Positions 845-61,050 of a DNA stretch of 64,000 nt are shown here, piece after piece; position 1 is the stretch's first letter; each line of letters starts with the position of its first letter. The translations under genes were made by a program, and so were the position numbers. Under the pieces are notes generated by a model, which saw only the letters and a program-made list of their open reading frames with translations, had not been told where the DNA came from and made no database searches. The DNA comes from a virus: the IMG/VR virus record IMGVR_UViG_3300045988_105524. The stretch is one strand, 5' to 3'.

Positions 845-895
845 AAAGCTCTCAGAAGTCAATCTCGTACGTCTGAGATATATCTGAGAGCTATG
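845..895. repeat. B-repeat (palindromic AGCTCTCAGA...TCTGAGAGCT element, T-run after) copy
   Basis: 10-bp outer inverted repeat with conserved internal sequence; family recurs ~10x. Confidence 0.8.
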
Positions 896-917
896 TTTAT
901 CGTAAATTCTTATGTAC

Positions 918-943
918 ACTCTTTTTATTTAGTTGTACTTCTT
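918..943. repeat. A-repeat copy 2
   Basis: Exact match to the 25-nt core. Confidence 0.9.
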
Positions 944-960
944 TACAAAAAAAAAGACGC

Positions 961-1000
961 TCTCTTAAGCTGAGCGCCTTCTTAACTGCGATATGTAAAT
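961..1000 (-). terminator. intrinsic terminator (GGCGCTCAGCTTAAGAGAGCGTC hairpin + T9 on minus strand)
   Basis: GC-rich hairpin followed by T-run read on minus strand. Confidence 0.6.
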
Positions 1001-1161
1001 CTTTAATCAAAATATTTTAGTAAAAGGAACATATTTTTGCAGCGTATAAATTCTACGATACGTAAATCTTGATTCAAAACTTATAGAGAAAAGGAACGTA
1101 TTTTTGTAGAATATAGTTGTATTGTAACACAAAACATCGCGTTTGTAAACAACTTTTAAAA

Positions 1162-1296
1162 TTAAAATTCAGCGTAAGTAAAATCTGACGTCCTTAACAT
1201 AAAGCCAAAAATACCAAATGCATATAATAGTGCAAAACTAACAAGTAGTCTAACACTCAGCGGTACTTTAGACATAAACTCTGTAATCTTTTTCAC
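1162..1296 (-). CDS. small hydrophobic peptide (~45 aa, GTG start)
   Basis: AAGGAG RBS 6 nt upstream of GTG; single predicted TM helix; not in ORF track (<60 aa). Confidence 0.25.
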   Translation of the reverse strand: MKKITEFMSKVPLSVRLLVSFALLYAFGIFGFMLRTSDFTYAEF

Positions 1297-1374
1297 CAAG
1301 TTCTCCTTTAACTTCTGAGAATAATTTTCGTCTTAAGCGGTAATTATTATTAAAAGAGCATAAAAGTTTACGAG

Positions 1375-1420
1375 AGACGATTCTGGTTCGTCTGGAGTAT
1401 ATCTCAGAGCACTTCTGTAA
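1375..1420. repeat. B-repeat copy (GATTCTGG/CCAGAATC variant)
   Basis: Sequence identity to other B copies. Confidence 0.8.
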
Positions 1421-1460
1421 TACTACTCACTGGAATAACATTATACGGATTCTTCTCACA

Positions 1461-1486
1461 CTCTTTTTATTTAGTTGTACTTCTTT
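1461..1486. repeat. A-repeat copy 3
   Basis: Exact match. Confidence 0.9.
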
Positions 1487-1724
1487 AGTCAAAATACACT
1501 TCAATAGGCGTATCAGTTGTAAATGATAAAACTAACTCACCATTTATAATAATTGCAGGCGCGCCAAACATCTGTTCATTAGGCACTTCAAATTTAGTGC
1601 CTGCTTTAATGTAGACAATATCGCCTTTAAGAAATAAACCATTCTCTTCTAGTACTTTTTCTGTGATGCTCTCATCTAAATCATTGATGCTGCAATACAC
1701 CACATCTCTTGCAAATCTAAGCAT
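1485..1724 (-). CDS. hypothetical protein (79 aa)
   Basis: ORF track; AAAGAGAGG RBS; preceded by A-repeat 4 and a B-repeat. Confidence 0.45.
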   Translation of the reverse strand: MLRFARDVVYCSINDLDESITEKVLEENGLFLKGDIVYIKAGTKFEVPNEQMFGAPAIIINGELVLSFTTDTPIEVYFD

Positions 1725-1811
1725 TATATTACCTCTCTTTAATCTTCTGCGTCAGATGCTACTTCTGACAATAAATTTTTAATTAGTGATAGTTTTTACG
1801 ATAAATATATG

Positions 1812-1866
1812 AAAAGCTCTCAGAAGTCAATCTCGTTCGTCTGGAGTATATCTCAGAGCTATATTT
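1812..1866. repeat. B-repeat copy
   Basis: Sequence identity to 845..895 copy. Confidence 0.8.
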
Positions 1867-3157: not shown

Positions 3158-3173
3158 TGTTTATGCGCTTCCT

Positions 3174-5303: not shown

Positions 5304-5367
5304 TTATTCGACCTCTCTACTTAGAATCTAACAACTCTTAAAGGAGTTTTATATTTCTGCGCTAACT

Positions 5368-5708: not shown

Positions 5709-6110
5709 TTACTTTTCAATTACTTTAACATCACCATAACTAGCGGTATCATCATAAGAGTCAATATCACTTGTGTCATAATAATCTCTATTGCTTTCTT
5801 CTATCATATCATACACGTCTTGTTCTAGCATATCTGTATTTGCACAGCTCATATCACGTATTCTGAATTTAATTAACTTTACTTGTAATATCTTTTGTTT
5901 TGTAAGGTCAATTTTTGCTTGTATATCTACAACAATACTTACCTTAATCTCGACTTCGTCATCTTTGTAATCAGTAAAATACTCAGAATAAAGCTTCTTT
6001 AACTCAAATATTCCAGTTAGTGTGTCATTTTCTACATTTAGTACTTCTACTAAATTAAATTTATCACCGTAGTTTATGTCGCTAAAACTAATATCAAATT
6101 TTCTTGCCAT
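5709..6110 (-). CDS. small acidic protein, tandem paralog family
   Basis: TLTGIFELK motif. Confidence 0.5.
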   Translation of the reverse strand: MARKFDISFSDINYGDKFNLVEVLNVENDTLTGIFELKKLYSEYFTDYKDDEVEIKVSIVVDIQAKIDLTKQKILQVKLIKFRIRDMSCANTDMLEQDVYDMIEESNRDYYDTSDIDSYDDTASYGDVKVIEK

Positions 6111-6140
6111 TGTTTATCTTTCTCCATTTTTATTTATATA

Positions 6141-6260
6141 CGTTTCTCAGATGTATCTCAGACGAACCAGAATCGTCTCTCGTAAACTTTAGCATACTTG
6201 TCGTATAAACTATTATAAAATATAAAAGTCTCTTAGAAATGATTCTGGTATCTCTGGTTA
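6141..6260. repeat. B-repeat copy plus partial inverted copy
   Basis: CTCAGATGTATCTCAGACGAACCAGAATCGTCTCTCGTAAAC and GATTCTGGTATCTCTGG. Confidence 0.7.
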
Positions 6261-9754: not shown

Positions 9755-11800
9755 TTACTCAATATCAATTTCGTATTCATTTGCGTGCTCAGTGATATAA
9801 TCTTTTCTAACGCTTGAGTCATTACCCATAAATAACTCCATAAACATAGATGCAAGCTCTGCGTCTTCCATTGTATATCTTATCAATCTTTGTGAATCTT
9901 CATTTAAGAAAATAGCCATGTCTTTTGCTGAAACTTCACCAAGACCTTTATTACGCATTATCTTTTTAACTTCTTTTTCTTTTATTAATTTCTCTTTTTC
10001 TTCTTTATCAAATGCATATACTTTTGTACCGTCTTTATAGATTATTTCAAACAACGGCGTCTGTAATGCATACACGTGTCCTTCTTCTATAATTTCAGGC
10101 ATAAATGTGTAGAATAAAGTTAGTAAAAGTGAACGTATGTGCATCGCATCTTCGTCAGCATCTGTCGCGAAGATAATCTTATCAAACCTTAGCTTACTTA
10201 AATCACACTTTGTTGTTTTTGTATTTACACCAGTGCCTACTAGCTGAATAATATTTTTAATTAGTTGGCTACTCAACGCGTCAGACGCTTTTGCTTTATA
10301 CACAGACTTAATCTTACCTCTGATAGGCATAAGTGCTTGATATTCAGGGTTTCTTGCTTGCTTTAAACTTGACATTGCAGACAAACCTTCTGCAATATAC
10401 AATTCTCTTTTGCTTGAGTCTTTACTTCTACAGTCAACGTAATTTTCTATTCTATTGCGCATACCGTTAATATCAGACTTAAGCTTTTCTTTCGCTACTT
10501 TCTTGCTATCGGCAATTGATTTTCTAGCTTGCATCATTGTAACAGCTCTTGATGTAATCTTTTCTACGATAGAAGAATTTTCTTTTGTAGAAATAAATTT
10601 CATTAGCTCTGCTTTTACTGCGTCATAGATAGCGTTCTTTACTTCTTTACCTGCAAGCTCTTCTTTTGTCTGTCCAGAGAACAGAGGGTCTGGAATAAAT
10701 ACAGATAACTGTAGATTTAAACCTTCTCTATAATCTTCAGCATTGGGCTTATCTTTACCTTTAATCTCTGAGTTAAATGAATCTGCAAGAGCGTCTTCAA
10801 AAGCTTGTAAATGTACACCCTTGAGACGTGTTTTTATTGTATTTACGTATGTATCTACGTTACTCTCATCAGCATAGCAAAATGCAAGTTCTATATCAAC
10901 AGTACGAATTAAATCTTTGTGTTGAATAGCACCATCAGTCATTACTGCTACATTTTTCTCAAGATATTCATTTGAGGTAGTGAACTCTACAACATCTGCG
11001 CCTTCAGGTAGAGCGTCTCTTAAACCATTTTCAGAGTAATACTCGTACTCAGCATTATTCTTAAAATTATCAATTACTTTAATATGAGACTTAGGTAAAA
11101 GATAACTAACACCTTTAAGTCTATCATTTAAATCATCTACATCTACAGGATAAGGGCTTGAGAAAATATTATCATCAAGCTTAATTCTTATCTTAGTACC
11201 TGTAGGAAAATTAGTCTTATAGTACTCTGCTCTATCGTCTTTTCTTGATTTTAGAGTAGCTTTATTCTTTAAAGGCTTAAACTCATCTTCTTCATTAAAA
11301 TAACCTGGTACAAAATCTTTAAATGACATGTAGTAGATTTTATTGTTTCTATAAACTTCAATATCTACTCTTTCAGATAACGCACAAGCTGCGGATGCTC
11401 CTAAACCATTTTGAGATGTACTCTTACCACCAGATGAATTACTACCTAAATTCTCACCAGAACGAAGAGTTCCAAGAGTAATAATAAAACCATTTACTTC
11501 ATTTCCTAACGCGTCAGTAGCAGTGTCAATAGGTAAACCTCTACCGTTATCAAGCACTGTTACAAAACCATCATTATCGAATGTTACTTCAATTCTATCT
11601 GCAAAATTTCTTATGATTTCGCCAACGCTGTTATCAATAATTTCTCTGATTGACACTGTTTTCTGCAGAGAGTATGGATGCTCAGCATCGCCTGTTTCTC
11701 TACCAAATGTTAAGTTAATCTTTTTCTTAAGATGTTCTACATCTGTTAGAGACGTGATGTTTTCAGCAGAATAATGTTCAGTGACTTTCTTTCTTGCCAT
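9755..11800 (-). CDS. type II DNA topoisomerase, GyrB/ParE-like ATPase-Toprim subunit
   Basis: 681 aa; GHKL ATPase (..ILDNGRGLP..) and Toprim (..YIAEG.., ..IIFATDADEDAMHI..) motifs. Confidence 0.8.
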   Translation of the reverse strand: MARKKVTEHYSAENITSLTDVEHLKKKINLTFGRETGDAEHPYSLQKTVSIREIIDNSVGEIIRNFADRIEVTFDNDGFVTVLDNGRGLPIDTATDALGNEVNGFIITLGTLRSGENLGSNSSGGKSTSQNGLGASAACALSERVDIEVYRNNKIYYMSFKDFVPGYFNEEDEFKPLKNKATLKSRKDDRAEYYKTNFPTGTKIRIKLDDNIFSSPYPVDVDDLNDRLKGVSYLLPKSHIKVIDNFKNNAEYEYYSENGLRDALPEGADVVEFTTSNEYLEKNVAVMTDGAIQHKDLIRTVDIELAFCYADESNVDTYVNTIKTRLKGVHLQAFEDALADSFNSEIKGKDKPNAEDYREGLNLQLSVFIPDPLFSGQTKEELAGKEVKNAIYDAVKAELMKFISTKENSSIVEKITSRAVTMMQARKSIADSKKVAKEKLKSDINGMRNRIENYVDCRSKDSSKRELYIAEGLSAMSSLKQARNPEYQALMPIRGKIKSVYKAKASDALSSQLIKNIIQLVGTGVNTKTTKCDLSKLRFDKIIFATDADEDAMHIRSLLLTLFYTFMPEIIEEGHVYALQTPLFEIIYKDGTKVYAFDKEEKEKLIKEKEVKKIMRNKGLGEVSAKDMAIFLNEDSQRLIRYTMEDAELASMFMELFMGNDSSVRKDYITEHANEYEIDIE

Positions 11801-12945
11801 ATTTTATTTACAATCCTTTCGTTTATTAAATGTGATAGCTTGTTCTTAAAGCTATTGTTCTCTATTTCATCTTCCCATAATTCTATTAGAGTTATACCTA
11901 ATTCTTCTGCAGCTTTTTGTTTCTTCTTAAAATCAGCTGGAGTAGATTTAAGCGCACCTCCATAGAGTATCATTGGGAATTCACCTTCGACTTTGCTATG
12001 AGTAGCATTGCCTTGTACTTCAATACCTAATTGTATATCAGGCAATAGTATATCGATTTCTTGCTTATATTTTGTAACAGGCAGAATTTTTCTATTTGTT
12101 TCTACTGCTAGTTCAAAATTATCTATTATATAATTCAAGACTTTTTGCTCTAATCTTGACTTAGTTGTATTCTTAGCAAAATTAGAATAATCAACCCATT
12201 CAGGTAGATTTACTCCAAAATAATCTTTAAAATCTACTGCATTAGGTTTACGCTTTCTCTTATTCTCGAATTCACTAGCCCAATCATTGGCGTTTTTATA
12301 CTCATCTAATAATTTTAAATTTAAAGACGATTTATGTTGATATAATGTTTGACACACTCTATCGCAGAAATGCTTATTCTTAGGGATAGTGCCTTGCAAC
12401 TTTATTTCTTTACTGCAATATTTGCATTCTATTGTATGAAAATCAGTACAAACTTTCTGAGATGAAGAGGTAGGAGTAAATATATTCCCACAGTAAATAC
12501 ATTCTCTAGGTTTATACGTCATATTTTTACGTGTATGAGTATTTCTACAAGAAGAGGAACAGAACTTAGCATCTCCATAAGATTGAAAACGCTGTCCGCA
12601 TTCTATACAATAATGAATCTTTTTTGTTTTAGCGTGCTTATTCATAGCTCTTTGACACTGTTCAGAACAAAAATCACTTGTTTCTGAAGAGGTTTTGCGT
12701 ACTTTACAATTTAAGCAAAAATTATTCCAATTCTTTTCAGCGTTAAAACATTCTATACATAAATCTTGTTTTTCATAATTATAGCGTTTAAACTCTTTGT
12801 TACATCTACTACAGTTAAATACTTTTTCTTTAGTACTTAATTTACCTGCACAACTTCTTGAGCAAGTTTTACTTAAATATGAAGATAGTCCACGTTTTGC
12901 ATTAAACTCTTTATTACAAACTGGGCAGTTGCGTATTACTTCCAT
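11746..12945 (-). CDS. putative homing endonuclease: multi-Zn-ribbon N-terminus plus PD-(D/E)xK-like C-terminal domain
   Basis: Many CxxC pairs; C-terminal ..LPDIQLGIEVQG..; paralogs at 39161 and 54465. Confidence 0.45.
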   Translation of the reverse strand: MEVIRNCPVCNKEFNAKRGLSSYLSKTCSRSCAGKLSTKEKVFNCSRCNKEFKRYNYEKQDLCIECFNAEKNWNNFCLNCKVRKTSSETSDFCSEQCQRAMNKHAKTKKIHYCIECGQRFQSYGDAKFCSSSCRNTHTRKNMTYKPRECIYCGNIFTPTSSSQKVCTDFHTIECKYCSKEIKLQGTIPKNKHFCDRVCQTLYQHKSSLNLKLLDEYKNANDWASEFENKRKRKPNAVDFKDYFGVNLPEWVDYSNFAKNTTKSRLEQKVLNYIIDNFELAVETNRKILPVTKYKQEIDILLPDIQLGIEVQGNATHSKVEGEFPMILYGGALKSTPADFKKKQKAAEELGITLIELWEDEIENNSFKNKLSHLINERIVNKIWQERKSLNIILLKTSRL

Positions 12946-13011
12946 AGTCTCTCTTTTAATCTCTCTACGTTATTTCTAGCTTATGTATATAAACTATCAT
13001 TAAGAGCATAA

Positions 13012-13068
13012 AAAGCTCTCAGAAATGATTCTCGTACGTCTGAGATATATCTGAGAGCTATATTTTAC
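13012..13068. repeat. B-repeat copy
   Basis: AAAGCTCTCAGAAATGATTCTCGTACGTCTGAGATATATCTGAGAGCTAT. Confidence 0.8.
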
Positions 13069-13844
13069 TTAACGTTCAATTTAGCGTACAACTCTTCTTC
13101 AGTTATAATCTTTATGCCTAATTGCACTGCTTTCTTATACTTACTACTTGAGCTAGGTTCATTACAAACAAGAAAATCAGCTTTGTTTATAGCAACTTCT
13201 TCAGCATTATGCTCTTCTAAAAATTTAACTATATCTTTTCTTGCTTTGCTCATTTTGCCTGTTAGACAAACTTTTATACCTGCACTCTTTTTATTTAGTT
13301 GTACTTCTTTGACGTAGTTAAGCGCATCATCTAACTCAGAATAATCAAAGTTTAGTAGTGTATTAGAAATACCTGAACTGATACCAGGTATCTGAGAAAA
13401 ATCAAATCTTTCATCGATAGCTTTTCTAAAAGAAGAGTAGTTATTAAAATAATCAACTAGCTTTATCGCTGTTTGCTTAGAGATATTTTCTAAACCGCAA
13501 TTAGCAATTAATTTCCATAGCTCTATTTCTTTAGGGATGTTATTTAGAATCTTATCTACTGAAATATCAGAAAAACCGTCAAGCTGCAACCACTCTTCTC
13601 TATGAGCGTAGAGTTTAAAATAATCTGATAAGCAAGTTAACCAACCTAACTTAATCAACTTCTCAATAGTGGAGTTAGAGATGCCTTCAATATCAAGCGC
13701 TTGTTTACCTGCAAATCTTATTAGCTTATTCTTTATCTTAGCAGGACAGTGTTTATTTTCGCATACAAGCTGCTTTACTCCTGTTACGTCAATCTTTAAT
13801 TCAGAACCGCAGTCAGGGCATATTGTTGGAATTTCAATTCTCAT
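13065..13844 (-). CDS. ligA: NAD-dependent DNA ligase, C-terminal half (Zn-finger, HhH, BRCT)
   Basis: Starts with a Cys4 Zn-finger (ICPDCGSEL...CENKHC), HhH segment, C-terminal BRCT-like ..VCLTGKM..; own RBS GAGGTGA. Confidence 0.75.
   Translation of the reverse strand: MRIEIPTICPDCGSELKIDVTGVKQLVCENKHCPAKIKNKLIRFAGKQALDIEGISNSTIEKLIKLGWLTCLSDYFKLYAHREEWLQLDGFSDISVDKILNNIPKEIELWKLIANCGLENISKQTAIKLVDYFNNYSSFRKAIDERFDFSQIPGISSGISNTLLNFDYSELDDALNYVKEVQLNKKSAGIKVCLTGKMSKARKDIVKFLEEHNAEEVAINKADFLVCNEPSSSSKYKKAVQLGIKIITEEELYAKLNVK
13285..13310. repeat. A-repeat copy 6, inside the ligA C-half coding sequence
   Basis: Exact 26-nt match; encodes KEVQLNKKS in frame. Confidence 0.9.
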
Positions 13845-13853
13845 ATTATCACC

Positions 13854-14576
13854 TCAAATTTCTACAGAATTATCATAATATTTCCAATGCAAATTATTTG
13901 TTTTCTTACGCTTACCTGAACAGCATTCGCTTATTTTTGAATTGCGACTATTAGTTTCTTTTGAGGCTTGCGTTATAGAGTCGTATACTATTCCAGTCTC
14001 TACGCATACAACTTTACGCCGTTTTTTGGCGGCTGCAGCTTCAATTCTTTTTTTATGGATAATCTTCATTTCTTCTGGGTGTTCTTTTTGCCATTTTAAG
14101 CAGTCTTTAACTTTTTCTCTCGACCATTCTATATCATTTTTCATTTTAATCACCATAGCTTTGTTAGCATTCGGAGAAATGATTTTTATTCCACATATTC
14201 GTTTATTATACTCAGGTTTTAGACTCCTGATATAATTTTCTTCTATATTTTTAGCTTCGCTAATAGTACAAGTAGCTCTAGATAATTCTGTATGCGTAAA
14301 ACACCCGTTTCCATATTTCTCAATGTCTTGATTAAACTCTTTATTAAACTTATACCCCTTGCCATTTCCCCATCTAGCTTTAATAGATTTTTGTGTTGTA
14401 GCTCCAACATATCGTTTATTGTTTACTGTGCAAGTGTGCATATAAAATATAACATTATATTTATTAGTGTCTTCATCAGATTTTAATATAGGTTTTTCAT
14501 TGTGCATGTCCTTTAAATGCCGATTTAACGAAGAGCGACAAGAAAAACACTTATTGCATATTAAACATCTTTCCAT
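13854..14576 (-). CDS. GIY-YIG homing endonuclease inserted within the DNA ligase gene
   Basis: N-terminal C2H2-like finger, ..YVGATTQ..R..GNG.. GIY-YIG-like core, basic C-terminus; ATG overlaps the ligase N-half stop (TAATG). Confidence 0.6.
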   Translation of the reverse strand: MERCLICNKCFSCRSSLNRHLKDMHNEKPILKSDEDTNKYNVIFYMHTCTVNNKRYVGATTQKSIKARWGNGKGYKFNKEFNQDIEKYGNGCFTHTELSRATCTISEAKNIEENYIRSLKPEYNKRICGIKIISPNANKAMVIKMKNDIEWSREKVKDCLKWQKEHPEEMKIIHKKRIEAAAAKKRRKVVCVETGIVYDSITQASKETNSRNSKISECCSGKRKKTNNLHWKYYDNSVEI

Positions 14577-15607
14577 TAGTTATTCCTTTCTGCTTTTACT
14601 ACTTGCGGTATTATACAATTTGATTTTCTTATCCAAATCTTTTGCCCAACGTACGGTTCGCCAAGAATTTTTTCTACTATATCAAGATTATGCATACTAG
14701 CTCTCTGAACATTTGTACCATCAATAACAACAGGCTTAAACTTCGCTACAGGAGTAAGATTACCTGTCTTACCTTGTGTCCATATAATGTCTAGCAACTC
14801 TGTTTCATATAGCTCATCATAAAATTTAAAAGCTAAAGCAGCGTTAGGACTATGCTCTGTTTTACCTAAGCTTTCATATTCTTCTATATTGTTAATCTTG
14901 TAAACTAGACCGTCAATAGGTAAATCAACACATTGTTCTCTTAGTGCCTCTGTATCAAAATCAAATCTATAAGGCACTACTTCAAAATCTCTACCTAAAT
15001 CATAAAGCTTTTCTGATAGTAGAGAATAAGACTTATCTGAAGAGATTAAATCAAAAGCAATAAATGATAAATTTCTCTGCTCTGCAACTTTAAGTCTCAT
15101 ACTACCCGCAGCATAATTTCTTACATTGGAAGAACCTACGTAATCAGAATATTTACAGATAACTTCACCTTCGACTGTAATATCATAAGGTAGAGACTTA
15201 GGAATATTGTCAATCATCATAGCGTTATGCGTAACATCTTCACCTATTCTGCCATTTCCTCTAGTCTCTGCTCTGAATAGCTTACCATTTTTATAAGTTA
15301 ATCTACAAGTTAAACCATCAAGCTTAGCCATAGCGATAATATCTTTATTCTTAAAAAATTTCTTTACTTCTTCAATATCTTTTGTTTTATTTAAAGATAG
15401 CATAGGAGTAGAATGCTCTACTTTATTCAATGTATTAGAGTGAATATTCTGAGTAGGAGAATCTTTATCAGGAGTATGCGTCTTTTCATATTCTACTACT
15501 TGAAAATATAAATCATCCCATTCTTTATCTGAAAGTGCAGGTGCTCCAGAATCATATAACTCTGTGTGCTTATTTAATTCTTTTATTGCTTCTTTATAAT
15601 TGAACAT
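14576..15607 (-). CDS. ligA: NAD-dependent DNA ligase, N-terminal half (Ia, adenylation KxDG, OB fold)
   Basis: ..AMAKLDGLT.. KxDG motif, ..ALAFKF.. motif V, complete OB-fold-like C-terminus; ends exactly at the OB/Zn boundary. Confidence 0.8.
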   Translation of the reverse strand: MFNYKEAIKELNKHTELYDSGAPALSDKEWDDLYFQVVEYEKTHTPDKDSPTQNIHSNTLNKVEHSTPMLSLNKTKDIEEVKKFFKNKDIIAMAKLDGLTCRLTYKNGKLFRAETRGNGRIGEDVTHNAMMIDNIPKSLPYDITVEGEVICKYSDYVGSSNVRNYAAGSMRLKVAEQRNLSFIAFDLISSDKSYSLLSEKLYDLGRDFEVVPYRFDFDTEALREQCVDLPIDGLVYKINNIEEYESLGKTEHSPNAALAFKFYDELYETELLDIIWTQGKTGNLTPVAKFKPVVIDGTNVQRASMHNLDIVEKILGEPYVGQKIWIRKSNCIIPQVVKAERNN

Positions 15608-21142: not shown

Positions 21143-21326
21143 AAAGAGACTTTAGTGCTGCTACAAGCTCTTCGTCTTCTATTTGATATAAAGGCAATCT
21201 ATACTCTAGATTTAAGATAAGCTGTCCAAGTCTTAAATCTGGATATTGCTGCCATATTTTCTCTATTTCATTTAAAATCTTTGGAATTCTCTCTGGGTTT
21301 CTCATAATGTTCCTCTTTAGATGCAT
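21120..21326 (-). CDS. hypothetical protein (68 aa)
   Basis: ORF track. Confidence 0.4.
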   Translation of the reverse strand: MHLKRNIMRNPERIPKILNEIEKIWQQYPDLRLGQLILNLEYRLPLYQIEDEELVAALKSLYGGVNND

Positions 21327-22000
21327 ATATTTACTATAACATCAATTTGGTCGTAGTAACTAGCGTATACACCTTCAAATATTTCTTTATCTGGTGAACT
21401 TTCAAATAATGTCCTATGGGCTAAGCGTATCTCTGCGCCTTTAAATAAATATAGTTTTACAGGGCTATCTTTAAATCTTGAATCGTCTTTCCACTGATTG
21501 AGCTTACCTTCACATACATCAAGAATTAGCTGACGAGTAAATTCTGAAAATTGCCTTGATTGCTCTTTTGTAAAAAATACTTTATCGTTTAATTCAAACG
21601 TATAGTTGACACTGTCATCATCAAAAATGTCGTGCGACGTTTTAATGTTTTTACGAACATAATCAAAGTATTCTTCTAGTGAGTTGATGTTTAGCTTTTC
21701 TAGCTCATCATAAGTTAAAGGCATTTTACTTATATTATTTTTCGCTCTTATGACACGCGGTAAAGCGCTAAGATACCTGACGATAACCATAAGCGCATAC
21801 ACGAAAACTGCTAATGCAACAAACAGTATAAAACCCCAGAGAGTGTAAATGAAGAATGAGGCTAGATTGAATGCATCAATCGCGTCATGAATTCTAGCTA
21901 ACTGTCCGAGTGCTATCGACATCACTACGGTTATAAGTACTTGTAACTCAGTATCAAACACTTTCGTGAGTTTAACTTTTCTTTTGATTTTATTATCCAT
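21317..22000 (-). CDS. membrane-anchored hypothetical protein (227 aa)
   Basis: Two TM helices then soluble domain; paralogous to 20163..20729. Confidence 0.45.
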   Translation of the reverse strand: MDNKIKRKVKLTKVFDTELQVLITVVMSIALGQLARIHDAIDAFNLASFFIYTLWGFILFVALAVFVYALMVIVRYLSALPRVIRAKNNISKMPLTYDELEKLNINSLEEYFDYVRKNIKTSHDIFDDDSVNYTFELNDKVFFTKEQSRQFSEFTRQLILDVCEGKLNQWKDDSRFKDSPVKLYLFKGAEIRLAHRTLFESSPDKEIFEGVYASYYDQIDVIVNICI

Positions 22001-22020
22001 TGACGTCCTTTCATGTTGGC

Positions 22021-22140
22021 AGCCAGATTTAACTTCTGACTGCTGTTTTTATCATAGGTGATAGTTTATATTAAATTAGCATAAAAGTTTACGAGAGACG
22101 ATTCTGGAGTTTCTGAGATATATCTGAGAGCTATATTTCG
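22021..22140. repeat. composite C+B intergenic repeat (inverted orientation relative to 32281..32395)
   Basis: Reverse complement of GATAAAAACAGCAGTCAGAAGTTAAATCT (C) and of the B consensus. Confidence 0.8.
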
Positions 22141-22925
22141 TTAAGCTTATTAGAGATGTCGATATTAGCTTCAGTGATAAAATCTACGTACTTCAGTTTC
22201 TCTTCAGTAGTTATGTTCCTTACATTTCTTTTTAAATCAAGTACATCGTGTCTATCAGACTTACGCGCAATTGAGACTAATTCAAAACGTAAATACATTT
22301 GTTCACTATCTACAACCGCTTTATCTGCAACTAACTCAGCAGTGATAAAGAAGTTTTCAAAACCAATAATTGCTTCTGATTTTGCGCAGATAGCAAAATA
22401 ATCACCTCTTATAAGATGACGTAAGCTTCGTACTTTACTCTCACTAAGAATATTATTCAAAGCGTCTTCAGCAAGCTTAGAATTTTTTATTGTCTGTATA
22501 TTTTCTTTCAACTTGTCGTACTGAGTATTAAACTCGTCAATCTTTGTCTTAAGATTCTGAAATGCTTTACTGCGCTTCTCTTCTATATTCTCGCCAAACT
22601 TATTCACACGATTCTTGTCAATCATATCAGCTTTAATAAATCTTGTTTTTACTGTAACGATTGTGTAATCAGATATAAAACAATCTACTTTAACAACATC
22701 TTCAAGCTCTTTTGTAGACGCACATTTTACAATACTCTTATTAAATGCGTCTCGAATAAATGCGCATTCAGCAGATATATCACAGTTAAACGCCACTTCT
22801 TTACTAACTCTAATGCCTTTTAGCTGGCGTCTAATCTCATTAGCATTACCTGAAATAGTATATGTTGAGTCAGAACCAAATGTCTTGATTATAACTTCGT
22901 ACTTTTTAAAAATCTTTGATAACAT
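22131..22925 (-). CDS. hypothetical protein, 'GENIxEKR' paralog family
   Basis: ..NKFGENIEEKRSKA.. motif shared with 23289, 42047, 45788, 46653, 47578. Confidence 0.5.
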   Translation of the reverse strand: MLSKIFKKYEVIIKTFGSDSTYTISGNANEIRRQLKGIRVSKEVAFNCDISAECAFIRDAFNKSIVKCASTKELEDVVKVDCFISDYTIVTVKTRFIKADMIDKNRVNKFGENIEEKRSKAFQNLKTKIDEFNTQYDKLKENIQTIKNSKLAEDALNNILSESKVRSLRHLIRGDYFAICAKSEAIIGFENFFITAELVADKAVVDSEQMYLRFELVSIARKSDRHDVLDLKRNVRNITTEEKLKYVDFITEANIDISNKLNEI

Positions 22926-32240: not shown

Positions 32241-32280
32241 ATTTGATGTTAAATATTTCATTTTGTATATACGGTAAAAT

Positions 32281-32395: not shown

Positions 32396-33066
32396 AATCT
32401 CAAGTACAAGCATTCTGCATTATACAACGAGCTAATTCTATTCAAATGATAATGAGCAAAGTACCATCTTCTGTAGCTTAAGTCACAGAGAATACTATCA
32501 AAGAAATTTGTTAGTTTATTCTTATCGTACATATAAGCTGAAATGTCATTCAATATATAAGATGAAGTACAGTGAGAAATAACATAATCAAAAGTAAAGT
32601 TATTCTCATCTAAAGTCTTAAACGCTCTTTCATACTCTTCGTTACTAGGCAATTCTTCAGACCACCAGTCAACATTAGCAATTCTTCTATGCTTATCAAT
32701 AGAATCAGCACCGCCCATTGCAAAGAATGTCTTATTTTCAATAGTGTACTTATACCCTCTCATTAAATGATAGATTTTATCTTTTAGTACTTCGTGAGTA
32801 GGGTTTCCGTACATCTCAACAATAGGCATTTTATTTAATCTATCGAAATTTTCGTGATTGCCATCTATGAATAGAATATGCTTGTAAGAAACAGAATCAG
32901 CAAAGTGATTAAGGAATTCATTGTCGTCTTTTTCATTATGCCACACGCCACCAAAATCACCAAGAATGATTAAAATGTCTTTATCTGTAACTCTTTTTTC
33001 TTTTGATAATTCTACTAATGGCTCTAAATCAATTGTTCTATGTAAGTCTCCGTATAGATAAATACT
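32383..33066 (-). CDS. PPP-family-like metallophosphoesterase (Ser/Thr phosphatase-like)
   Basis: ..YGDLH.., ..LGDFGG.., ..DGNHE.. motifs; track ORF 32383..33156 trimmed to Met preceding the motifs. Confidence 0.6.
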   Translation of the reverse strand, partial: SIYLYGDLHRTIDLEPLVELSKEKRVTDKDILIILGDFGGVWHNEKDDNEFLNHFADSVSYKHILFIDGNHENFDRLNKMPIVEMYGNPTHEVLKDKIYHLMRGYKYTIENKTFFAMGGADSIDKHRRIANVDWWSEELPSNEEYERAFKTLDENNFTFDYVISHCTSSYILNDISAYMYDKNKLTNFFDSILCDLSYRRWYFAHYHLNRISSLYNAECLYLRLIEI

Positions 33067-33070
33067 CATA

Positions 33071-33439
33071 CTACTTACACATCTCTTCAATCTCTTCAGT
33101 AATGTCGTCAGGGTGTAAGAATGCAAATAGTGGTAAATCATCGAAGCATTCTTCACTTACTTCAAAATAAACCCAGTCAGCATTTTCAAATGAGAATAAA
33201 CCACCTTTGTAACCTTCATACTTAGAGCCGTCAGTTAGCTTATCAATAATTACTAGTAAATCAGCAAGAGTCATATATTTATCACTATCTTTAAAGAAAA
33301 TAGCAGGCTGAAAATAATCACCTCTCCAGCTACCAAACCCTCTGTAATAATTATCATCAAGCTTAGTTGTATCTACATAATTTATTCTTACGTCAGGATA
33401 TTCTCTGCATAATCTCTCTAGAGTTGCAATGTTCATCAT
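33071..33439 (-). CDS. hypothetical protein (122 aa)
   Basis: ORF track. Confidence 0.4.
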   Translation of the reverse strand: MMNIATLERLCREYPDVRINYVDTTKLDDNYYRGFGSWRGDYFQPAIFFKDSDKYMTLADLLVIIDKLTDGSKYEGYKGGLFSFENADWVYFEVSEECFDDLPLFAFLHPDDITEEIEEMCK

Positions 33440-37014: not shown

Positions 37015-38766
37015 TCACTTAAGCAGACAGCCACAATCAAAATTATCTAAATCAATAACTTCTTCAACGCTGTCGTCTGTGAACTGCTTGATATATGTCT
37101 GATTTCTTACTACGCTCTTATAAATATCAATGTCTTGTATATCTTCGCATACATCGCAAGATACAATATCAGATGTCGTAACGCCCGATAGTAGATAAAT
37201 GTATATTTCATCTTCAGATGAATAAGTGTCTACTAGCACGTTACAGATGTTACGAGACGTATTTACGTCGACTAGCATATCATATATTACGTTATTAGCG
37301 AAGTAATCGACATTCTTAGACAAATCTGAAATCATTAACTTCATATCTTCTGGACAACCACCGCCATAAAACAGTCTAACATCAAATAAGATGTAATCTC
37401 TTACTGATTCGTCTATTGAGATATACTCAGCAGCATAACCGTTTTTATTAGTGTTAGTCATATCACCAGAGTACGCTAAGCTGTATTGATGAGTATAACC
37501 ATTCCAACCAATGTGGCAAGAACGTGTCTTTGCATGTAAGTCTATATCAACGTGCTCCGTATCCCAGTAGACACCAACGCTGTAGCTCTTTCTAGGTAGA
37601 GTAATCTTTGTACAAGCAGGTAAATGACCAAGCATACGCTTTAAAGATGTAGGCATAGCGATATCTACATTCTCTGGTAGCTTGATATTCAAAGACTGAA
37701 TATGCTTACGGATAACATCTTCAAGAGCGTTTACTACTTTTCCTGTTAGTCTCTTAGAGCTTACCTTATCTGTTATAAACTTCTTGCCATTTCTAATAGT
37801 ATAGATAGTAAAATCGTCATTTGTTCTCTGCTTATTCGCATTGAGAATCTGAGTAGCCTTAACTACGTTGATATTATCAACCATATCCAGCTGCTCTTTT
37901 TCTGATAGCTCAAAAAATCTCTCAATCTTAGTGAACTTCTTTGGAACAGCCTTTGTCTTACTCTGTCTAAGGGCTCTATTTATAAGAGTAATTGTTTCTT
38001 TGCTGCAATGTCTCTTGCAAAGCATAAGAATATCTCTGTATCTGTTAGCGTCTCTTACAACATTTTCGAAGTTAGTTGTTAGCTCTCTGTACAAAAGCGC
38101 GTTTACAACATAGCCATTCATAAGATAGTACTTCTTATCAAGCTCTCTTACAAGATTACGATTAATGAAAAGAGTATTACCTGTAACAGTATAATTAATC
38201 ACACGCACAAGAGTATCAAGACCTACAGCATCTGCGCCGATATTAGCGATATACATTACTTCAAGCTCTCTGTTGTTGATGTTTTCAAGCGCAATACCAT
38301 TTGTTTCAATAAACTCGTAAATGCTGATTACGTCATCAGAGTCAAGAGCGATGTTTGTCTGTACTAGTGTCTTAATCTTTTCAATTGCTTCGTCAAGAGT
38401 GATAGTATTAATAAAGTTAATCTTTGCCTTAACTATGCCCTCTATTTCTCCATTGTTCATAGAGAAAACGTTGCCGTCATTACGTAACTCTTCAATATTA
38501 CTGTATGTTGATAGGTAGTGTATAATCTGCAATACTTTTGCTGTAACTTCGTCTAGTGACTCAACGAATTCCTTGCTATCATAAAAAGTAGCAGTAAGCG
38601 CAGCAGCTGGTGTGCCATATTTCTTTGCAAGTTCTGTAGCTATACAGAAATCTATTGACTTAGGTATGACAATAGAAAACTCTTTTAAAAGCTCTGGGTA
38701 GAACTTATCAGTCTTATTATCTACTATTACTGCATTAAACAACTTCATTTGTGTTCTTATATCCAT
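37015..38766 (-). CDS. large hypothetical protein (583 aa)
   Basis: ORF track; no motif recognised. Confidence 0.45.
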   Translation of the reverse strand: MDIRTQMKLFNAVIVDNKTDKFYPELLKEFSIVIPKSIDFCIATELAKKYGTPAAALTATFYDSKEFVESLDEVTAKVLQIIHYLSTYSNIEELRNDGNVFSMNNGEIEGIVKAKINFINTITLDEAIEKIKTLVQTNIALDSDDVISIYEFIETNGIALENINNRELEVMYIANIGADAVGLDTLVRVINYTVTGNTLFINRNLVRELDKKYYLMNGYVVNALLYRELTTNFENVVRDANRYRDILMLCKRHCSKETITLINRALRQSKTKAVPKKFTKIERFFELSEKEQLDMVDNINVVKATQILNANKQRTNDDFTIYTIRNGKKFITDKVSSKRLTGKVVNALEDVIRKHIQSLNIKLPENVDIAMPTSLKRMLGHLPACTKITLPRKSYSVGVYWDTEHVDIDLHAKTRSCHIGWNGYTHQYSLAYSGDMTNTNKNGYAAEYISIDESVRDYILFDVRLFYGGGCPEDMKLMISDLSKNVDYFANNVIYDMLVDVNTSRNICNVLVDTYSSEDEIYIYLLSGVTTSDIVSCDVCEDIQDIDIYKSVVRNQTYIKQFTDDSVEEVIDLDNFDCGCLLK

Positions 38767-38770: not shown

Positions 38771-38895
38771 TCCTCCGTATAGCTCTCAGATATATCTCAG
38801 ACGTATGAGATTAACTTCTCGTAAACTTTTACGTACTTATAGTATAATTTATCATTAAAGTAAAAACTAACGCTCAGAAGTTAAATCTGAGCTTC
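38771..38895. repeat. composite B+C intergenic repeat
   Basis: ATAGCTCTCAGATATATCTCAGACGTATGAGATTAACTTCTCGTAAAC ... CTCAGAAGTTAAATCTGAG. Confidence 0.8.
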
Positions 38896-53263: not shown

Positions 53264-53290
53264 ATATTATATTAAAATGTATATAAAAAT

Positions 53291-53315
53291 GTCTCAGAAG
53301 TTAAATCAGAATCTC
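53291..53315. repeat. C-repeat fragment (CTCAGAAGTTAAATCAGAATCTC)
   Basis: Matches core of C-repeat. Confidence 0.5.
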
Positions 53316-53566
53316 TGAAGAGCATTCAAGAGATAAAATTCTTCAAAATCAGTTAGAGACATATTATACTTGCCATCTGACATACAGATATATTCAACAT
53401 TGATTGAAGCATTAAGCTCAGGAAAAGTAAGATTAGTGTAAACTCTCTTAAAACGTCCTGACATATACTTAAATCTACCTAAGCCGTCACGTTCTATTTC
53501 TACAATAGCTCTATGACTGACGTTAGAATCAAGATATTCTGTTATCTGTTTTACTTCTACTAACAT
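53306..53566 (-). CDS. hypothetical protein (86 aa)
   Basis: ORF track. Confidence 0.4.
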   Translation of the reverse strand: MLVEVKQITEYLDSNVSHRAIVEIERDGLGRFKYMSGRFKRVYTNLTFPELNASINVEYICMSDGKYNMSLTDFEEFYLLNALQRF

Positions 53567-58481: not shown

Positions 58482-58496
58482 AATTAATCTTCCTCT

Positions 58497-58679
58497 CTAT
58501 TCAAAAACAAGCAAATACTGCTCACTACTGCCAAAATCAATGTAGTAAGCATCATTGCCACATTTATATGTTTTCACTTTTCCTATCTGCTTTGAGATTA
58601 AATAGTCTTTAAACTCTTCAAACGAGTTAAATACTTCTGTACGCAGAACTTCCCTATCTGTGACTAGCTGTACTGTCAT
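58497..58679 (-). CDS. hypothetical protein (60 aa)
   Basis: ORF track; ATGA-coupled to upstream small ORF. Confidence 0.4.
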   Translation of the reverse strand: MTVQLVTDREVLRTEVFNSFEEFKDYLISKQIGKVKTYKCGNDAYYIDFGSSEQYLLVFE

Positions 58680-58831
58680 CGTGATAATATCCTATCTATA
58701 AAAGGTTTAAATACTCCAGCAGGTTGCTTTGTGTCTATTCCTATAAGCGTATCACTAACTCTCATATCAGCTAGATAGAAGAATGTTAGGATAATAGCAC
58801 AACCTACTATGATTGCAATTATTTTCTTCAT
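58678..58831 (-). CDS. small secreted/lipoprotein-like peptide (51 aa)
   Basis: AGGAGAG RBS; MKKIIAIIVGCAII signal-like N-terminus; lies immediately after the IS right-end repeat. Confidence 0.35.
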
Positions 58832-58845
58832 GACTCTCCTTATGA

Positions 58846-58962
58846 CGCTGCGCTAAGCGCATTCCTGGGTAAGCTTAGGTCACTCTCGTCAGTTTAAAAA
58901 CTGGCTACCCTCCAGAGCAAATTTACCAGGCGAGAATACGGTCGTCAACCGCATCTTGTATT
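58846..58962 (-). ncRNA. IS605-family right end / putative omegaRNA scaffold region overlapping the 3' end of tnpB
   Basis: Begins inside the last codons of tnpB (…NTRCG*) as is typical for TnpB omegaRNAs; duplicated at 55768..55890. Confidence 0.4.
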
Positions 58963-60051
58963 AACTAATTCATTTATGCCAACAGTCAAAATATTCACTG
59001 CAGCATTTACGTCTCTATCGTGATGCGTACCACAATCAGGACAAACCCATTCTCTAACATCGAGTGAGTTAACAATCTCCTTGTGCTTAGTACCGCATGA
59101 TGAACATAATGTGCTTGTTGGCTTAAATCTGTTTATTTTATGAAATACTTTTCCATACCACTTACATTTATACTCTAACATGCTTGTAAACATTTACCAG
59201 CTAGCGTCTTGAATAGCATAAGCAAGTCTATGATTTTTACTCATACCTTTTACGTTCAAATCTTCAACAGCAATAAAATCATATTTCGTTACAAGTTGCG
59301 TAGTGAGCTTGTTTAGAGCGTCTTTACGTTTATTCGCAATATGAGTCTTATATTTAGCAACTTTCTTCTTATATGCTTGATAATTACTCGCATTCTCATA
59401 ATCAATACTAACTTTCTTCAACTTGTCTCTCATTTTAGAAAGCTTTCTATCCATAGATGCAATCTTATTACGATTACTCTTAGCATAATTAAAGGGAGGA
59501 ATCTTGATTCCGTTACTTAGCGTGATGAACGACTCTAAACCTAAGTCTATACCAGCATTCTCTCCAGTTTGAGTCTTTTGCGTTACGTATTTTTCAACTG
59601 TCAAAGAAGCGTAAACTTTTCCCGATGGCTCGATGATGACTGTAGCAGACGTAAGCTTTAAAAATTCAGGCATATGTCGAGTTTTAATTTTAACTAGTCC
59701 AATTTTTGGTATTTTTAAGTTTTTATCTTGAATAGCGACTTTCCCATTATTAGATGGCACTCTAAAGCTAATCTGACTATGTCTAGACTTGAATTTCGGA
59801 TAACCATACTTTTGCTTATACTTACCTTTACAACCTTTAAAGAAGTTAGTAAATGCGCGTTGTAAGTCTATTCTAGATTGTTGCAGCGCTACTGCGCTAG
59901 AATCATTTAACCAATCAAATTCTTCTTTCAGAGTTTTTATCTCAGCTTCCATTTCTTTAGTATTCATTAATTTTGAGCTCGACTTGTACAACTCATTTTG
60001 AATAGAAAGAAGATGATTATAAACAAAACGCGAGCAACCAGCGAATTGCAT
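58945..60051 (-). pseudogene. tnpB: IS605-family tnpB (OrfB) interrupted by a single in-frame TAA (59194..59196)
   Basis: Track ORFs 59194..60051 and 58945..59193 are in the same frame separated by one TAA; the C-terminal piece carries CxxC...CxxC Zn-finger and RuvC-III ..DRDVNAAVNI.. Confidence 0.6.
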
Positions 60052-60124
60052 AATTTGTTGTAGTTGTCTTTTATTCGGCTTAATTCTTATTCTGTATTTA
60101 GCTTTTACTAGTTGCGGCGCGGTA

Positions 60125-60243
60125 TCACCTCCTTATATAGTTTTAAATACTGAGTAGTTAGCATCACATAATATGCTTTTAGCAATCGATGTTTCTGCTC
60201 TATTCGCAGCATAAATATTGAAAATCACTCTGTTATTTCTCGC
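60125..60243 (-). pseudogene. duplicated C-terminal gene fragment (…RNNRVIFNIYAANRAETSIAKSILCDANYSVFKTI) in frame after the TAA stop of 60244..60501
   Basis: ~85% nt identity to 60500..60615 (C-terminus of 60511..60966); the TAA aligns with a CAA (Gln) codon in the paralog. Confidence 0.5.
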
Positions 60244-60501
60244 TTATACTGCAGTGCCTAATGTATCTGCAACATGTTTTATAAAATCGAATATCTGTAT
60301 TACTGTAGGCATATTATATCCTAGCGTTGCAAAAATAAAGCAAACTAAGAAATATGCTAACATAATATTCAAGCTGTCTTTGAATGTCCAGCCAAATAAC
60401 TTAAGTACTAATGAAATGCAAAGCATAATCATTAGATTAACTGGAGCAGCTAGAATAAATTGTATAAAATTCTGTACAAATGTAAGTAAGTACTCTGTCA
60501 T
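60244..60501 (-). CDS. small membrane protein (85 aa)
   Basis: Two TM helices. Confidence 0.45.
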   Translation of the reverse strand: MTEYLLTFVQNFIQFILAAPVNLMIMLCISLVLKLFGWTFKDSLNIMLAYFLVCFIFATLGYNMPTVIQIFDFIKHVADTLGTAV

Positions 60502-60510
60502 TGTCTCTCC

Positions 60511-60966
60511 TTAAATTGTTTCAAATACTGAGTAGTTAGCGTCGCCTAGAATAGACTTAGCTATTGATGTTTCAGCTCTATTTGCAGCGTATATATTAAA
60601 AATCACTCTATCATTCTTTGCTTGTACTGCTGTGTATGTTAATTCAGCATTTCTTAATGCTATTTCAGTTTCATCAGCTAGCGTACCTTTAATGATTGCG
60701 TGAATGTTCCATAGTCTATCTTTCTTTTTCTTTTCAATGAGATATTTAGCTAAGTATACTCCAGTAAAATTCGTAATGATTGTTACTATAATTACTACTG
60801 GAAAACTATAATCATTAAGTAGCTTTACTACAACTACATTTACTGTAAAAGATAACGTATTCATAAATGCTGCTTGTAGTTTACTGCCTGATACAGTAGA
60901 AATACTTTTCAATGTAGCTACGATTACGTTAATAAATTGCAATGTAATAAATAATACTATACCCAT
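60511..60966 (-). CDS. membrane protein (151 aa) with soluble C-terminal domain
   Basis: N-terminal hydrophobic segments; C-terminal region duplicated at 60125..60243. Confidence 0.45.
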   Translation of the reverse strand: MGIVLFITLQFINVIVATLKSISTVSGSKLQAAFMNTLSFTVNVVVVKLLNDYSFPVVIIVTIITNFTGVYLAKYLIEKKKKDRLWNIHAIIKGTLADETEIALRNAELTYTAVQAKNDRVIFNIYAANRAETSIAKSILGDANYSVFETI

Positions 60967-60990
60967 ATATGCATCTCCTTTCTATACATA

Positions 60991-61050
60991 CAGAGTATAG
61001 CTCTCAGATATATCTCAGAGACTCCAGAATCGTCTCTCGTAAACTTTTAT
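60991..61050. repeat. B-repeat copy
   Basis: TATAGCTCTCAGATATATCTCAGAGACTCCAGAATCGTCTCTCGTAAAC. Confidence 0.8.

Follow-up and report, generated by a model that had tools for sequence, protein, structure and literature searches.

The 64,000-nucleotide stretch of viral DNA considered here (IMG/VR record IMGVR_UViG_3300045988_105524; “the window” refers below to this whole stretch) contains a family of small repeats, the B/C units, in which a “B core” of about 60 bp is joined through an AT-rich spacer to a hairpin, “C.” From sequence comparison, these units are regarded, with a probability of about 0.42, as lineage-specific mosaic intergenic repeats similar to bacterial interspersed mosaic elements (BIMEs), BOX elements, and the promoter early stem-loops (PeSLs) of phages. 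They would be constrained at the level of DNA, with some copies serving as terminators or leader hairpins and the units providing homology for the gain and loss of genes. The family is best filed with BIME and BOX elements, and compared with PeSLs, rather than classed with ordinary terminators, MITEs (miniature inverted-repeat transposable elements), or insertion-sequence ends.

The genome in which these repeats reside is strongly polarized. Every long open reading frame (ORF) of the window and all 26 of its tRNA genes lie on the minus strand, GC content is 31-36% with a steadily negative GC skew, about 14% of the sequence is non-coding, and the one-strand gene layout is also found in the roughly 100 kb examined of a relative from IMG/VR. 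An nhmmer profile made from the nine sites listed in an earlier note on this sequence, by whose coordinates the copies are designated (c845, c1375, and so on), finds exactly nine full B cores in the window (E values of 1e-13 to 1e-19), together with one truncated copy (6221-6257) and one degenerate copy (~53282-53341). All are intergenic, three units cluster within 1.1 kb, and the copies align colinearly, without rearrangement, over about 110 nt. Five cores are in the sense orientation (845, 1375, 1812, 13012, 22081) and four are antisense (6141, 32281, 38771, 60991), and the ratio in the 174-kb IMG/VR relative is 6:7, while the promoters, the D6 leader repeats described below, and the tRNA genes are all sense. 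The earlier description of a repeat family present in both orientations among co-directional genes is thus borne out, as is the view that a purely directional transcriptional role is unlikely. Copies confined to one orientation, which the earlier note had taken as the mark of ordinary terminators, are not what these ratios describe.

The construction of the units is modular. An X block of two near-palindromic heptads with 11-bp phasing (TCTSAGA-N4-TCTSAGA) is combined with a Y module that exists in three variants, a Z module that exists in two, the AT-rich spacer, and the C hairpin, with more heptads in Z and C. The heptad TCTSAGA occurs 29 times in the window as compared with 11 expected from shuffles, and 19 of these 29 occurrences lie within B copies; similarly, AGCTCTCAGA with at most one mismatch occurs 14 times as compared with 5.7 expected, a number reached by none of 100 shuffles. 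X (A/B) is paired with Y (1a/2) in each of the four possible ways, and at least eight combinations are found when X (A/B), Y (1a/1b/2), and Z (1/2) are taken together. The modules have therefore been shuffled among copies, which points to gene conversion. The core as first written merged two right-hand variants (TGAGAGC in three copies, TCGTAAAC in six), and where two alternatives had been described for its middle there are three, with two states in the left block.

Evidence for constraint comes from relatives with 90-97% identity that were recovered by scans with B patterns, namely IMGVR_UViG_3300045988_112802 (173,658 bp), two ERZ772909 contigs, short ERZ772979 contigs, and QWBZ01013205. No phage in INPHARED is close to the window at the DNA level, the best protein relatives (about 37% identical) come from large Bacillus and Geobacillus phages, and single-protein searches for more distant relatives in which empty sites might be found returned the same IMG/VR contig only. 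In both orientations, the core of about 60 bp changes as slowly as codon positions 1 and 2. Identity of the B core is 96.3% in the IMG/VR relative and 95.4% in ERZ772909, as compared, respectively, with 96.0% and 95.0% for first codon positions, 97.5% and 96.3% for second positions, 87.3% and 87.7% for third positions, and 90.0% and 90.7% for the rest of the unit. By orientation, ortholog identity is 95.4% for sense and 96.7% for antisense copies. Zero differences over 55-59 nt are seen in 8 of the 18 ortholog comparisons, and a few comparisons show 5-7 clustered differences that match states found elsewhere in the family; thus the Y module of c1812 is Y1a in the window but Y1b in two relatives, and the second heptad of c38771 alternates between its two states among orthologs. 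We read this pattern as probably reflecting purifying selection or homogenization, with occasional gene conversion between copies.

Because equal conservation in both orientations is left unexplained by roles at the RNA level, the X block would appear to be recognized as double-stranded DNA. The main rival to the reading of the units as mosaic repeats, or possibly its complement, is built on this point and holds that the cores are primarily dispersed binding sites of a DNA-binding protein that reads the X block in this form. Taken as the primary explanation this is unlikely, although much of the evidence accords with it, including an orientation independent of transcription where expression signals are all sense, antisense copies that are at least as conserved as sense copies, a core that has changed less than either third codon positions or the remainder of the unit, the excess of heptads concentrated in B copies, and the six cores without an RNA fold described below. 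Candidate binders include a transcription factor or insulator of the phage, a factor for replication or recombination, and, more speculatively, the phage type II topoisomerase, which would then parallel the binding of gyrase to repetitive extragenic palindromic (REP)/BIME-2 sequences and would relieve supercoiling in a genome transcribed one way. GyrB-like and GyrA-like genes are indeed present in the window (9755-11800 and 7775-9742). On the other hand, no candidate protein has been tied to the sites, some 60 bp with three interchangeable middles is long and plastic for a single operator, heptad 1 is missing in some copies (those of contigs L008 and L010, and 6221-6257), gene conversion alone can slow divergence, and the topoisomerase idea draws on analogy. 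Still more doubtful is the wider conjecture that the B core is a double-strand DNA signal reused genome-wide regardless of gene direction, perhaps as topoisomerase loading or cleavage sites or as sites for replication or recombination factors.

The capacity to fold is unevenly distributed among the cores. In type 1 (845, 1812, 13012), the right arm TCTGAGAGCT is followed directly behind the stem by T5 or TTTTC in all three copies, each of which is sense; in type 2 (six copies), TCGTAAAC replaces the right arm, and TTTT comes 9 nt past a 6-bp stem. As compared with shuffles, folds are strong in c845 and c13012 and weak in c1812, the stem of which has a mismatch (Table 1), and none of the six type-2 cores shows a significant fold on either strand (z -1.6 to +1.2). 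The 10-bp outer inverted repeat followed by T5 that the earlier note attributed to the family is thus present at 845 and 13012, recurs at 1812 with one mismatch and TTTTC, and is missing elsewhere, and the description of the family as palindromic fits a minority only, because the TCGTAAAC copies have no significant fold. The anatomy of an intrinsic terminator (A-tract, hairpin, T-tract) is confined to the sense type-1 copies c845, c13012, and, weakly, c1812. The proposal of bidirectional terminators is accordingly plausible for these two or three copies and does not extend to type 2.

That the units are simply ordinary Rho-independent terminators, alike through shared ancestry only, is improbable. 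The strong hairpins and T5 of c845 and c13012 do stand on the transcribed strand directly past stop codons, as this explanation would have it, but six of the nine cores have no right arm and fold no better than shuffles, four of the nine are antisense, and the usual terminators of this phage are unique hairpins with a T-run fused to canonical promoters. A structured RNA or ribozyme was likewise rejected on the missing type-2 folds and on a search of Rfam, in which only tRNAs reach the gathering score in the window and the B/C units have no match.

C, in contrast to type-2 cores, is a genuine hairpin with the core CAGA-AGTTAAA-TCTG, in which the loop is conserved. Its outer stem varies between copies while pairing is retained (76.9% of cells are paired, as compared with 18-35% when partners are slid), and five pairs are altered on both sides, giving a covariation score that none of 500 shuffles reaches. 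An A-run lies upstream of the hairpin in every intact C copy, so that a hairpin and then a T-run are read on the opposite strand. Behind C, sense copies have a ribosome-binding site; the C of c22081 ends 10 nt ahead of that of gene 21317..22000. An exact 29-mer of C is common to 22025-22053(-) and 32362-32390(+), and the composite B+C units at 22018-22137 and 32278-32390 are mutually inverted, as had been noted. The listing of C at 22021, 32355, 38866, and 53291 stands for the first three sites; 53291 belongs to a degenerate B, and C-like hairpins also accompany 845 and 1812.

The expression signals of the phage provide a standard against which the units can be judged. All 19 canonical promoters (tGTTTACAt-N-TGnTATAAT; for example, 22954-22982, 27834-27862, and 30814-30842) are on the minus strand and thus sense, and most follow a unique hairpin with a run of T8-10. 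These sets of hairpin, T-run, and GTTTACA-17-TATAAT are the true PeSL-like terminator-promoter cassettes of the phage. With a weight matrix trained on the same 19 promoters, the B/C units score at most 4.6 in either direction, as compared with at least 16.7 for the training set, which rules out a canonical promoter in either direction. A -10-like hexamer does occur at constant distance from the B core. A profile of the spacer finds no match outside the units, however, so the units are not a second promoter class, and neither CGTAAAC-N14-18-TAWWWT nor AGATATAT-type motifs are general signals. An invertible promoter switch is also ruled out, as orthologs keep their orientation in all genomes. 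The B/C units, then, are not the standard promoters of this phage and may be weak or factor-dependent ones. The best candidate for promoter activity on sequence grounds is the degenerate copy at 53266-53341, in which GAGACA-18-TATAAT ends 4 nt ahead of tRNA-Leu 53188-53263.

A second dispersed element, the leader repeat D6 (25-mer AAGAAGTACAACTAAATAAAAAGAG), behaves as a directional signal. It is exact in six of the seven window copies, with one mismatch at 3174-3198, and the IMG/VR relative has 12 exact copies; orientation is sense in 7/7 and 12/12, respectively. D6 usually stands directly past a stop codon or directly ahead of a ribosome-binding site, although one copy is in frame within the ligase ORF. 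In relatives, D6 sites are also the exact positions of extra DNA, 591 nt long at 3168-3199 and 171 nt long at 904-917. Where D6 is followed directly by B (919/845 and 1878/1812), the arrangement resembles a gene cassette minus its gene.

The earlier suggestion of MITE-like mobile units fails on each of three tests. Words shared by the two flanks reach a maximum of 2-4 nt and differ at every copy, so that there is no target-site duplication; X matches the reverse complement of C at 9-12 of 23 positions, values equalled by 84, 285, and 1562 of 2000 shuffles, so that the ends are not significant inverted repeats; and no empty site is found, all nine loci being occupied in every relative that covers them (only two or three genomes, at 90-97% identity). 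The criteria for MITEs given in PMC3049150 are AT-richness, inverted terminal repeats, a folded structure, and target duplication; B/C units show AT-richness, and type 1 alone a folded structure. The only internal inverted repeat, of 10 bp, is confined to type-1 cores.

A related and rather unlikely alternative supposes a dormant non-autonomous mobile element, MITE- or REPIN-like, that was spread by a transposase and whose regulatory roles today would be incidental. The units are of small size, rich in AT, clustered, present in both orientations, and confined to intergenic DNA; the 10-bp inverted repeat of type-1 cores is perfect; the mosaic build recalls BOX and BIME elements; and the family is restricted to one narrow phage lineage, being absent from INPHARED, Rfam, and other oral phages that share the TnpB discussed below. 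The pneumococcal BOX, RUP, and SPRITE elements, which also show little evidence of recent mobility (PMC3049150), may be counted in its favor. Against it are the lack of target-site duplication and of significant inverted repeats at the X and C ends, the occupation of all nine loci in the relatives covering them, a C-side boundary that is not sharp, conservation of the core above a near-neutral rate, and the finding that the units are not the ends of nearby IS200/IS605 elements. As for a cognate transposase, only TnpB genes, with or without TnpA, were seen, with unrelated ends, the rest of the genome not having been searched. A scan of metagenome and viral collections with the X pattern returned this phage lineage only; 5 of 16 metagenome pattern matches (L017, L019, L021, L024, L027) are chance matches to the left half. 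A likeness to CRISPR repeats, as in RNA anti-CRISPRs, was also considered and judged to be chance, since only the 8-mer AGAGCTAT is shared with a streptococcal type II-A repeat.

In ERZ772909 and ERZ772979, two of the relatives, C and B are separated by a gene at the c38771 and c60991 orthologs. Both genes encode TnpB (OrfB_IS605, Cas12f1-like TNB, and HTH_OrfB_IS605 domains), with a mutual identity of 50%. This placement is what would be seen if B and C were the right and left ends of an IS200/IS605 element, with the short units as gene-less derivatives of the palindrome-associated transposable element (PATE) type, an explanation that now retains almost no probability. In the ERZ772909 insertion sequence, tnpA and the left end have been lost, with the last ~30 nt of tnpA remaining. 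Members of its family, at 80-93% identity, occur in phages of Streptococcus thermophilus, oral assemblies of Streptococcus and Gemella, and numerous viral contigs of 170-250 kb, a spread that hints at a Streptococcus- or Gemella-like host. About 30 other copies share homology only as far as a conserved end, GTAGTTCAC, inside the unit spacer, so the ends of the unit do not coincide with those of the insertion sequence; the B core is absent at all of these ~30 loci, in other large phage contigs, Streptococcus, and Gemella. Moreover, the copy that bears tnpA, in Streptococcus thermophilus phage P7574, is 80% identical and has ends unrelated to B or C. IS200/IS605 ends are accordingly ruled out as an identity for B and C.

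The window itself preserves the corresponding empty sites. For the ERZ772909 insertion, it reads TTTAA followed directly by TGATAAATT. For the ERZ772979 insertion, the relative reads CAGATTTAA, the insertion sequence, and then TCTCCAG, and the window reads CAGATTTAC joined to TCTCCAG, which places the insertion in the C loop, after TTTAA; here the C of c60991 has TTTAC in the window where the relative has TTTAA. TTTAA is a known target motif of some TnpB elements (ISAam1; PMC11224200). What the IMG/VR relative has as its ortholog of c38771 is derived from the occupied allele by deletion. Together, the empty sites and this derivative indicate that the TnpB elements are nested insertions into pre-existing units. 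The idea that the units are homing sites finds no support in this comparison, in which no presence or absence linked to an endonuclease was seen and the insertions into units are the two TnpB elements next to TTTAA. The accompanying statement that several units flank homing-endonuclease genes is correct for 13012, which has an HNH gene (11746-12945; PHROG E 3e-14) on one side and a GIY-YIG gene (13854-14576) splitting the ligase on the other, and does not apply to 38771, the neighbors of which have no endonuclease match.

Some of the gene turnover in this lineage involves the units. Comparison of the window with its relatives gives about 18 indels or rearrangements, 6 of which touch a B/C unit, far above expectation for random positions. 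A window-specific block of terminator, promoter, and gene comes to within 1 nt of the left edge of c22081; relatives have, and the window lacks, a 171-nt segment with a small ORF between the D6 leader and c845; the two TnpB insertions and the deletion derivative at c38771 supply further cases; and synteny ends inside c1812 in contig L022. In that contig, the thyX side of c1812 is joined within B to a block that lies near an antisense copy elsewhere in the IMG/VR genome, with gene direction reversed. This junction may be the expected product of recombination between inverted copies or, equally, an assembly chimera. Cassette-like turnover is also general in the lineage. One relative lacks, or has other sequence in place of, entire small genes or blocks of the window at 5345-5672, 18553-19232, 28291-28526, 35194-37009, and 19782-27479, and the junctions coincide with gene boundaries at a distance from B units.

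A history that would account for these features begins with a single ancestral cassette of terminator, weak promoter, and leader, copies of which, in one orientation or the other, then reached further gene boundaries. The copies would be kept homogeneous by gene conversion, probably through the phage’s own RecA/UvsX-type recombinase. Sense type-1 copies would terminate upstream transcripts, and type 2 would be a propagated “disarmed” version in which loss of the right arm allows read-through. C would be a selected hairpin which, in sense copies, stands at the 5' end of the leader directly ahead of the ribosome-binding site. Homologies of 55-110 bp could then act as exchange points for the gain and loss of small accessory genes, and TTTAA motifs exposed in the units could attract IS200/IS605 insertions. 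An additional role of the X block at the DNA level, most likely protein binding, is the weakest part of this explanation.

Several points weigh against regarding the units as constrained mosaic repeats with these functions. The loci compared were fetched with B patterns and are thereby subject to ascertainment bias. Type-2 cores lack the fold, and the units as a whole the promoter score, that the corresponding roles would lead one to expect; a deletion has removed the -10-like stretch from the IMG/VR ortholog of c38771, where the neighboring genes are intact. C is terminator-like on the sense strand in only one of the four antisense copies. Enrichment of breakpoints at the units becomes marginal when breakpoints are restricted to non-coding DNA (~2.9 expected, 6 observed), and the coverage of L022 is only 2.4x, so its junction may be chimeric. 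Finally, no binding protein has been identified, and the arrival of an inverted copy at a new site is an unexplained step.

Comparison with known repeat families helps to place the B/C units. They display the interchangeable modules, several combinations, both orientations, and intergenic location that typify BIME and BOX elements. The likeness is one of build; no similarity in sequence was found, the BOX and REP consensus sequences not having been aligned to B/C. Insertion sequences land in the repeats, as IS1397 inserts into REP loops, and little sign of current mobility and context-dependent effects on expression are common to both groups. The REP/BIME sequences of enterobacteria and the BOX (boxA-boxB-boxC) and SPRITE elements of pneumococci (PMC3049150) are likewise modular, mosaic, and intergenic, occur in both orientations, and contain hairpin parts. 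The B/C units differ in residing in a phage genome, in having about 14 copies rather than hundreds, and in having no known REP-associated tyrosine transposase (RAYT) or other cognate transposase.

The PeSLs of T4-type phages (PMC2839356, PMC4122927) are also short composite repeats at gene boundaries of large phages of lytic type, beside small variable genes; they include a stem-loop terminator and have been proposed as homology for indels and gene shuffling, and in the B/C family several indel junctions lie at unit edges. PeSLs have a strong sigma-70 promoter, however, whereas B/C units score far below the phage’s own promoters, about half of the B/C copies oppose transcription, and most have no stem-loop. 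Correia elements and MITEs resemble the units in being small, AT-rich, intergenic, found in either orientation, and able to carry terminators or promoters, but B/C units have no element-spanning inverted repeats, no TA or other target duplication, and no presence/absence polymorphism. Dispersed intergenic families are found in other viruses as well. The repeats of halovirus HF2, shown to carry promoters (PMC8707807), differ in that these promoters are archaeal; the mycobacteriophage mobile elements (MPMEs) are about 440 bp long with inverted repeats, a small ORF, and clear insertion polymorphism (PMC3029335). The B/C units match neither family.

Table 1. B, C, D6, and TnpB features of the B/C family (window coordinates unless a contig is named)
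Feature	Position	Strand	Evidence
B core c845, type 1 (X-A, Y1a, right arm TCTGAGAGCT + T5), sense	839..896	-	nhmmer 59 bits; hairpin fold of -25.4 kcal/mol, z -5.6
B core c1375, type 2 (X-B, Y2, TCGTAAAC), sense	1358..1415	-	nhmmer 62.5 bits; fold z -1.55
B core c1812, type 1 (X-B, Y1a; one mismatch in the stem), TTTTC tail, sense	1808..1864	-	nhmmer 54.4 bits; z -1.0
B core c6141, type 2, antisense	6139..6193	+	nhmmer 54.1 bits
Truncated type-1 B (Y1b + right arm + TTTT), sense	6221..6257	-	nhmmer 23.9 bits, E 4.5e-6; alignment
B core c13012, type 1 (10-bp inverted repeat without mismatch, then T5), sense	13006..13064	-	nhmmer 62.3 bits; -21.7 kcal/mol, z -4.1
B core c22081, type 2, sense	22079..22136	-	nhmmer 61.4 bits; fold z +1.2
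B core c32281, type 2, antisense	32278..32336	+	nhmmer 66.1 bits
B core c38771, type 2 with Y1-like middle, antisense	38777..38834	+	nhmmer 59.5 bits
B core c60991, type 2, antisense	60994..61052	+	nhmmer 62.9 bits
Degenerate B-like copy (right arm TTCTGAGACA + T5, then TATAAT), sense	53266..53341	-	sequence context, alignment
C-like hairpin of c845 (TCAGA-GATTAAA-TCTGA), then D6 leader and gene 522..746	778..804	-	
C-like hairpin of c1812 (GTCAGA-AGTAGCA-TCTGAC), directly ahead of ribosome-binding site of gene 1485..1724	1747..1773	-	
C of c22081, A-run + 9-bp hairpin GCAGTCAGA-AGTTAAA-TCTGGCTGC	22018..22053	-	
C of c32281, right arm broken, loop holds stop codon of gene 32383..33156	32362..32390	+	
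C hairpin of c38771 (GCTCAGA-AGTTAAA-TCTGAGC), terminator-like on both strands	38869..38895	+	
Degenerate C of c60991, overlapping last codons of kinase gene 61086..61574	61087..61113	+	
D6 leader, 25-mer AAGAAGTACAACTAAATAAAAAGAG	756-780, 919-943, 1461-1485, 1878-1902, 3174-3198, 13285-13309, 32070-32094	- (all)	
TnpB insertion sequence in B-C unit of ERZ772909	L012 7976-9262		
TnpB insertion sequence in B-C unit of ERZ772979	L013 ~303-1580		

Many of these copies are fitted closely to neighboring genes. Downstream of c1375, CAGAAGTTAAAGGAG is the ribosome-binding site of a small ORF with a GTG start; the left ends of c6141 and c38771 lie about 15 nt and 4 nt, respectively, from the ribosome-binding sites of genes 5709..6110 and 37015..38766; and the left end of c22081 contains the stop codon of ORF 22131..22925. 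The truncated copy at 6221-6257 converges on c6141, with an AT-rich spacer common to both. The c13012 core is situated between the 3' end of the NAD-dependent ligase gene and the HNH endonuclease gene 11746..12945. The GIY-YIG/NUMOD homing-endonuclease gene (13854-14576, minus strand) divides this ligase region (13065-15607) into an adenylation/OB part (14576..15607) and a zinc-finger/BRCT part (13065..13844), and both relatives lack it, with ~90 nt in place of 823 nt. Other genes of the window include a RecA/UvsX-like recombinase, ThyX, a nucleotide kinase, RtcB, and TelA.

Further observations concern TnpB in the window. A tnpB homologue (58945-60096, minus strand), 35-38% identical to the TnpBs of the relatives, is split by an in-frame TAA (TGG TAA ATG) into ORFs 59194..60051 and 58945..59193 and is either a pseudogene or a split gene. 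Just upstream of it, 60129-60256 and 60507-60634 form a 128-nt direct repeat (80% identity) that duplicates the 3' end of gene 60511..60966 and may be the footprint of insertion or recombination. The region directly 3' of the split tnpB (58840-58961, minus strand), a likely omega RNA scaffold, is 93% identical to 122 nt at 55759-55880 (minus strand), an isolated stretch at a distance of 3 kb that comes directly after a canonical TTTACA-17-TATAAT promoter (55886-55914, minus strand) and is followed by a different “guide,” AATGGTAATTACATTAAG. From this context, 55759-55880 may represent a TnpB guide RNA that a phage expresses strongly and on its own; the guide has no target in the sequences examined and no exact copy in IMG/VR. 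The paralogous genes 39161-40027 and 54465-55287 (both minus strand), which share an 82-nt stretch at 83% identity and one of which has weak matches to TnsA-like endonuclease and DUF7487, may be further free-standing endonuclease genes beside tRNA clusters. The sequence at 41094-41164 (minus strand) is tRNA-like by Rfam (34 bits) but is missed by ARAGORN, and it seems to have an irregular anticodon loop.

Bacterial chromosomes are well known to contain small dispersed repeats, which have rarely been described in phages, where the known cases (PeSLs and, probably, the HF2 repeats) are directional promoter/terminator cassettes. As the B/C family is independent of orientation, constrained, and located in a phage whose genes run one way, it lends itself to a clean natural test between action at the DNA level and action at the RNA level for such repeats. 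The family also marks where this lineage gains and loses small genes and where TnpB elements land, marks that help in the annotation and comparison of uncultivated large Firmicutes phages. If the doubtful idea of a reused double-strand DNA signal were true, B core sites would punctuate a 174-kb one-way genome as the phage counterpart of gyrase-binding REP/BIME sequences or of the strong gyrase site of Mu. Should the core prove to be a protein-binding site, it would represent a genome-organizing function so far undescribed for phages.

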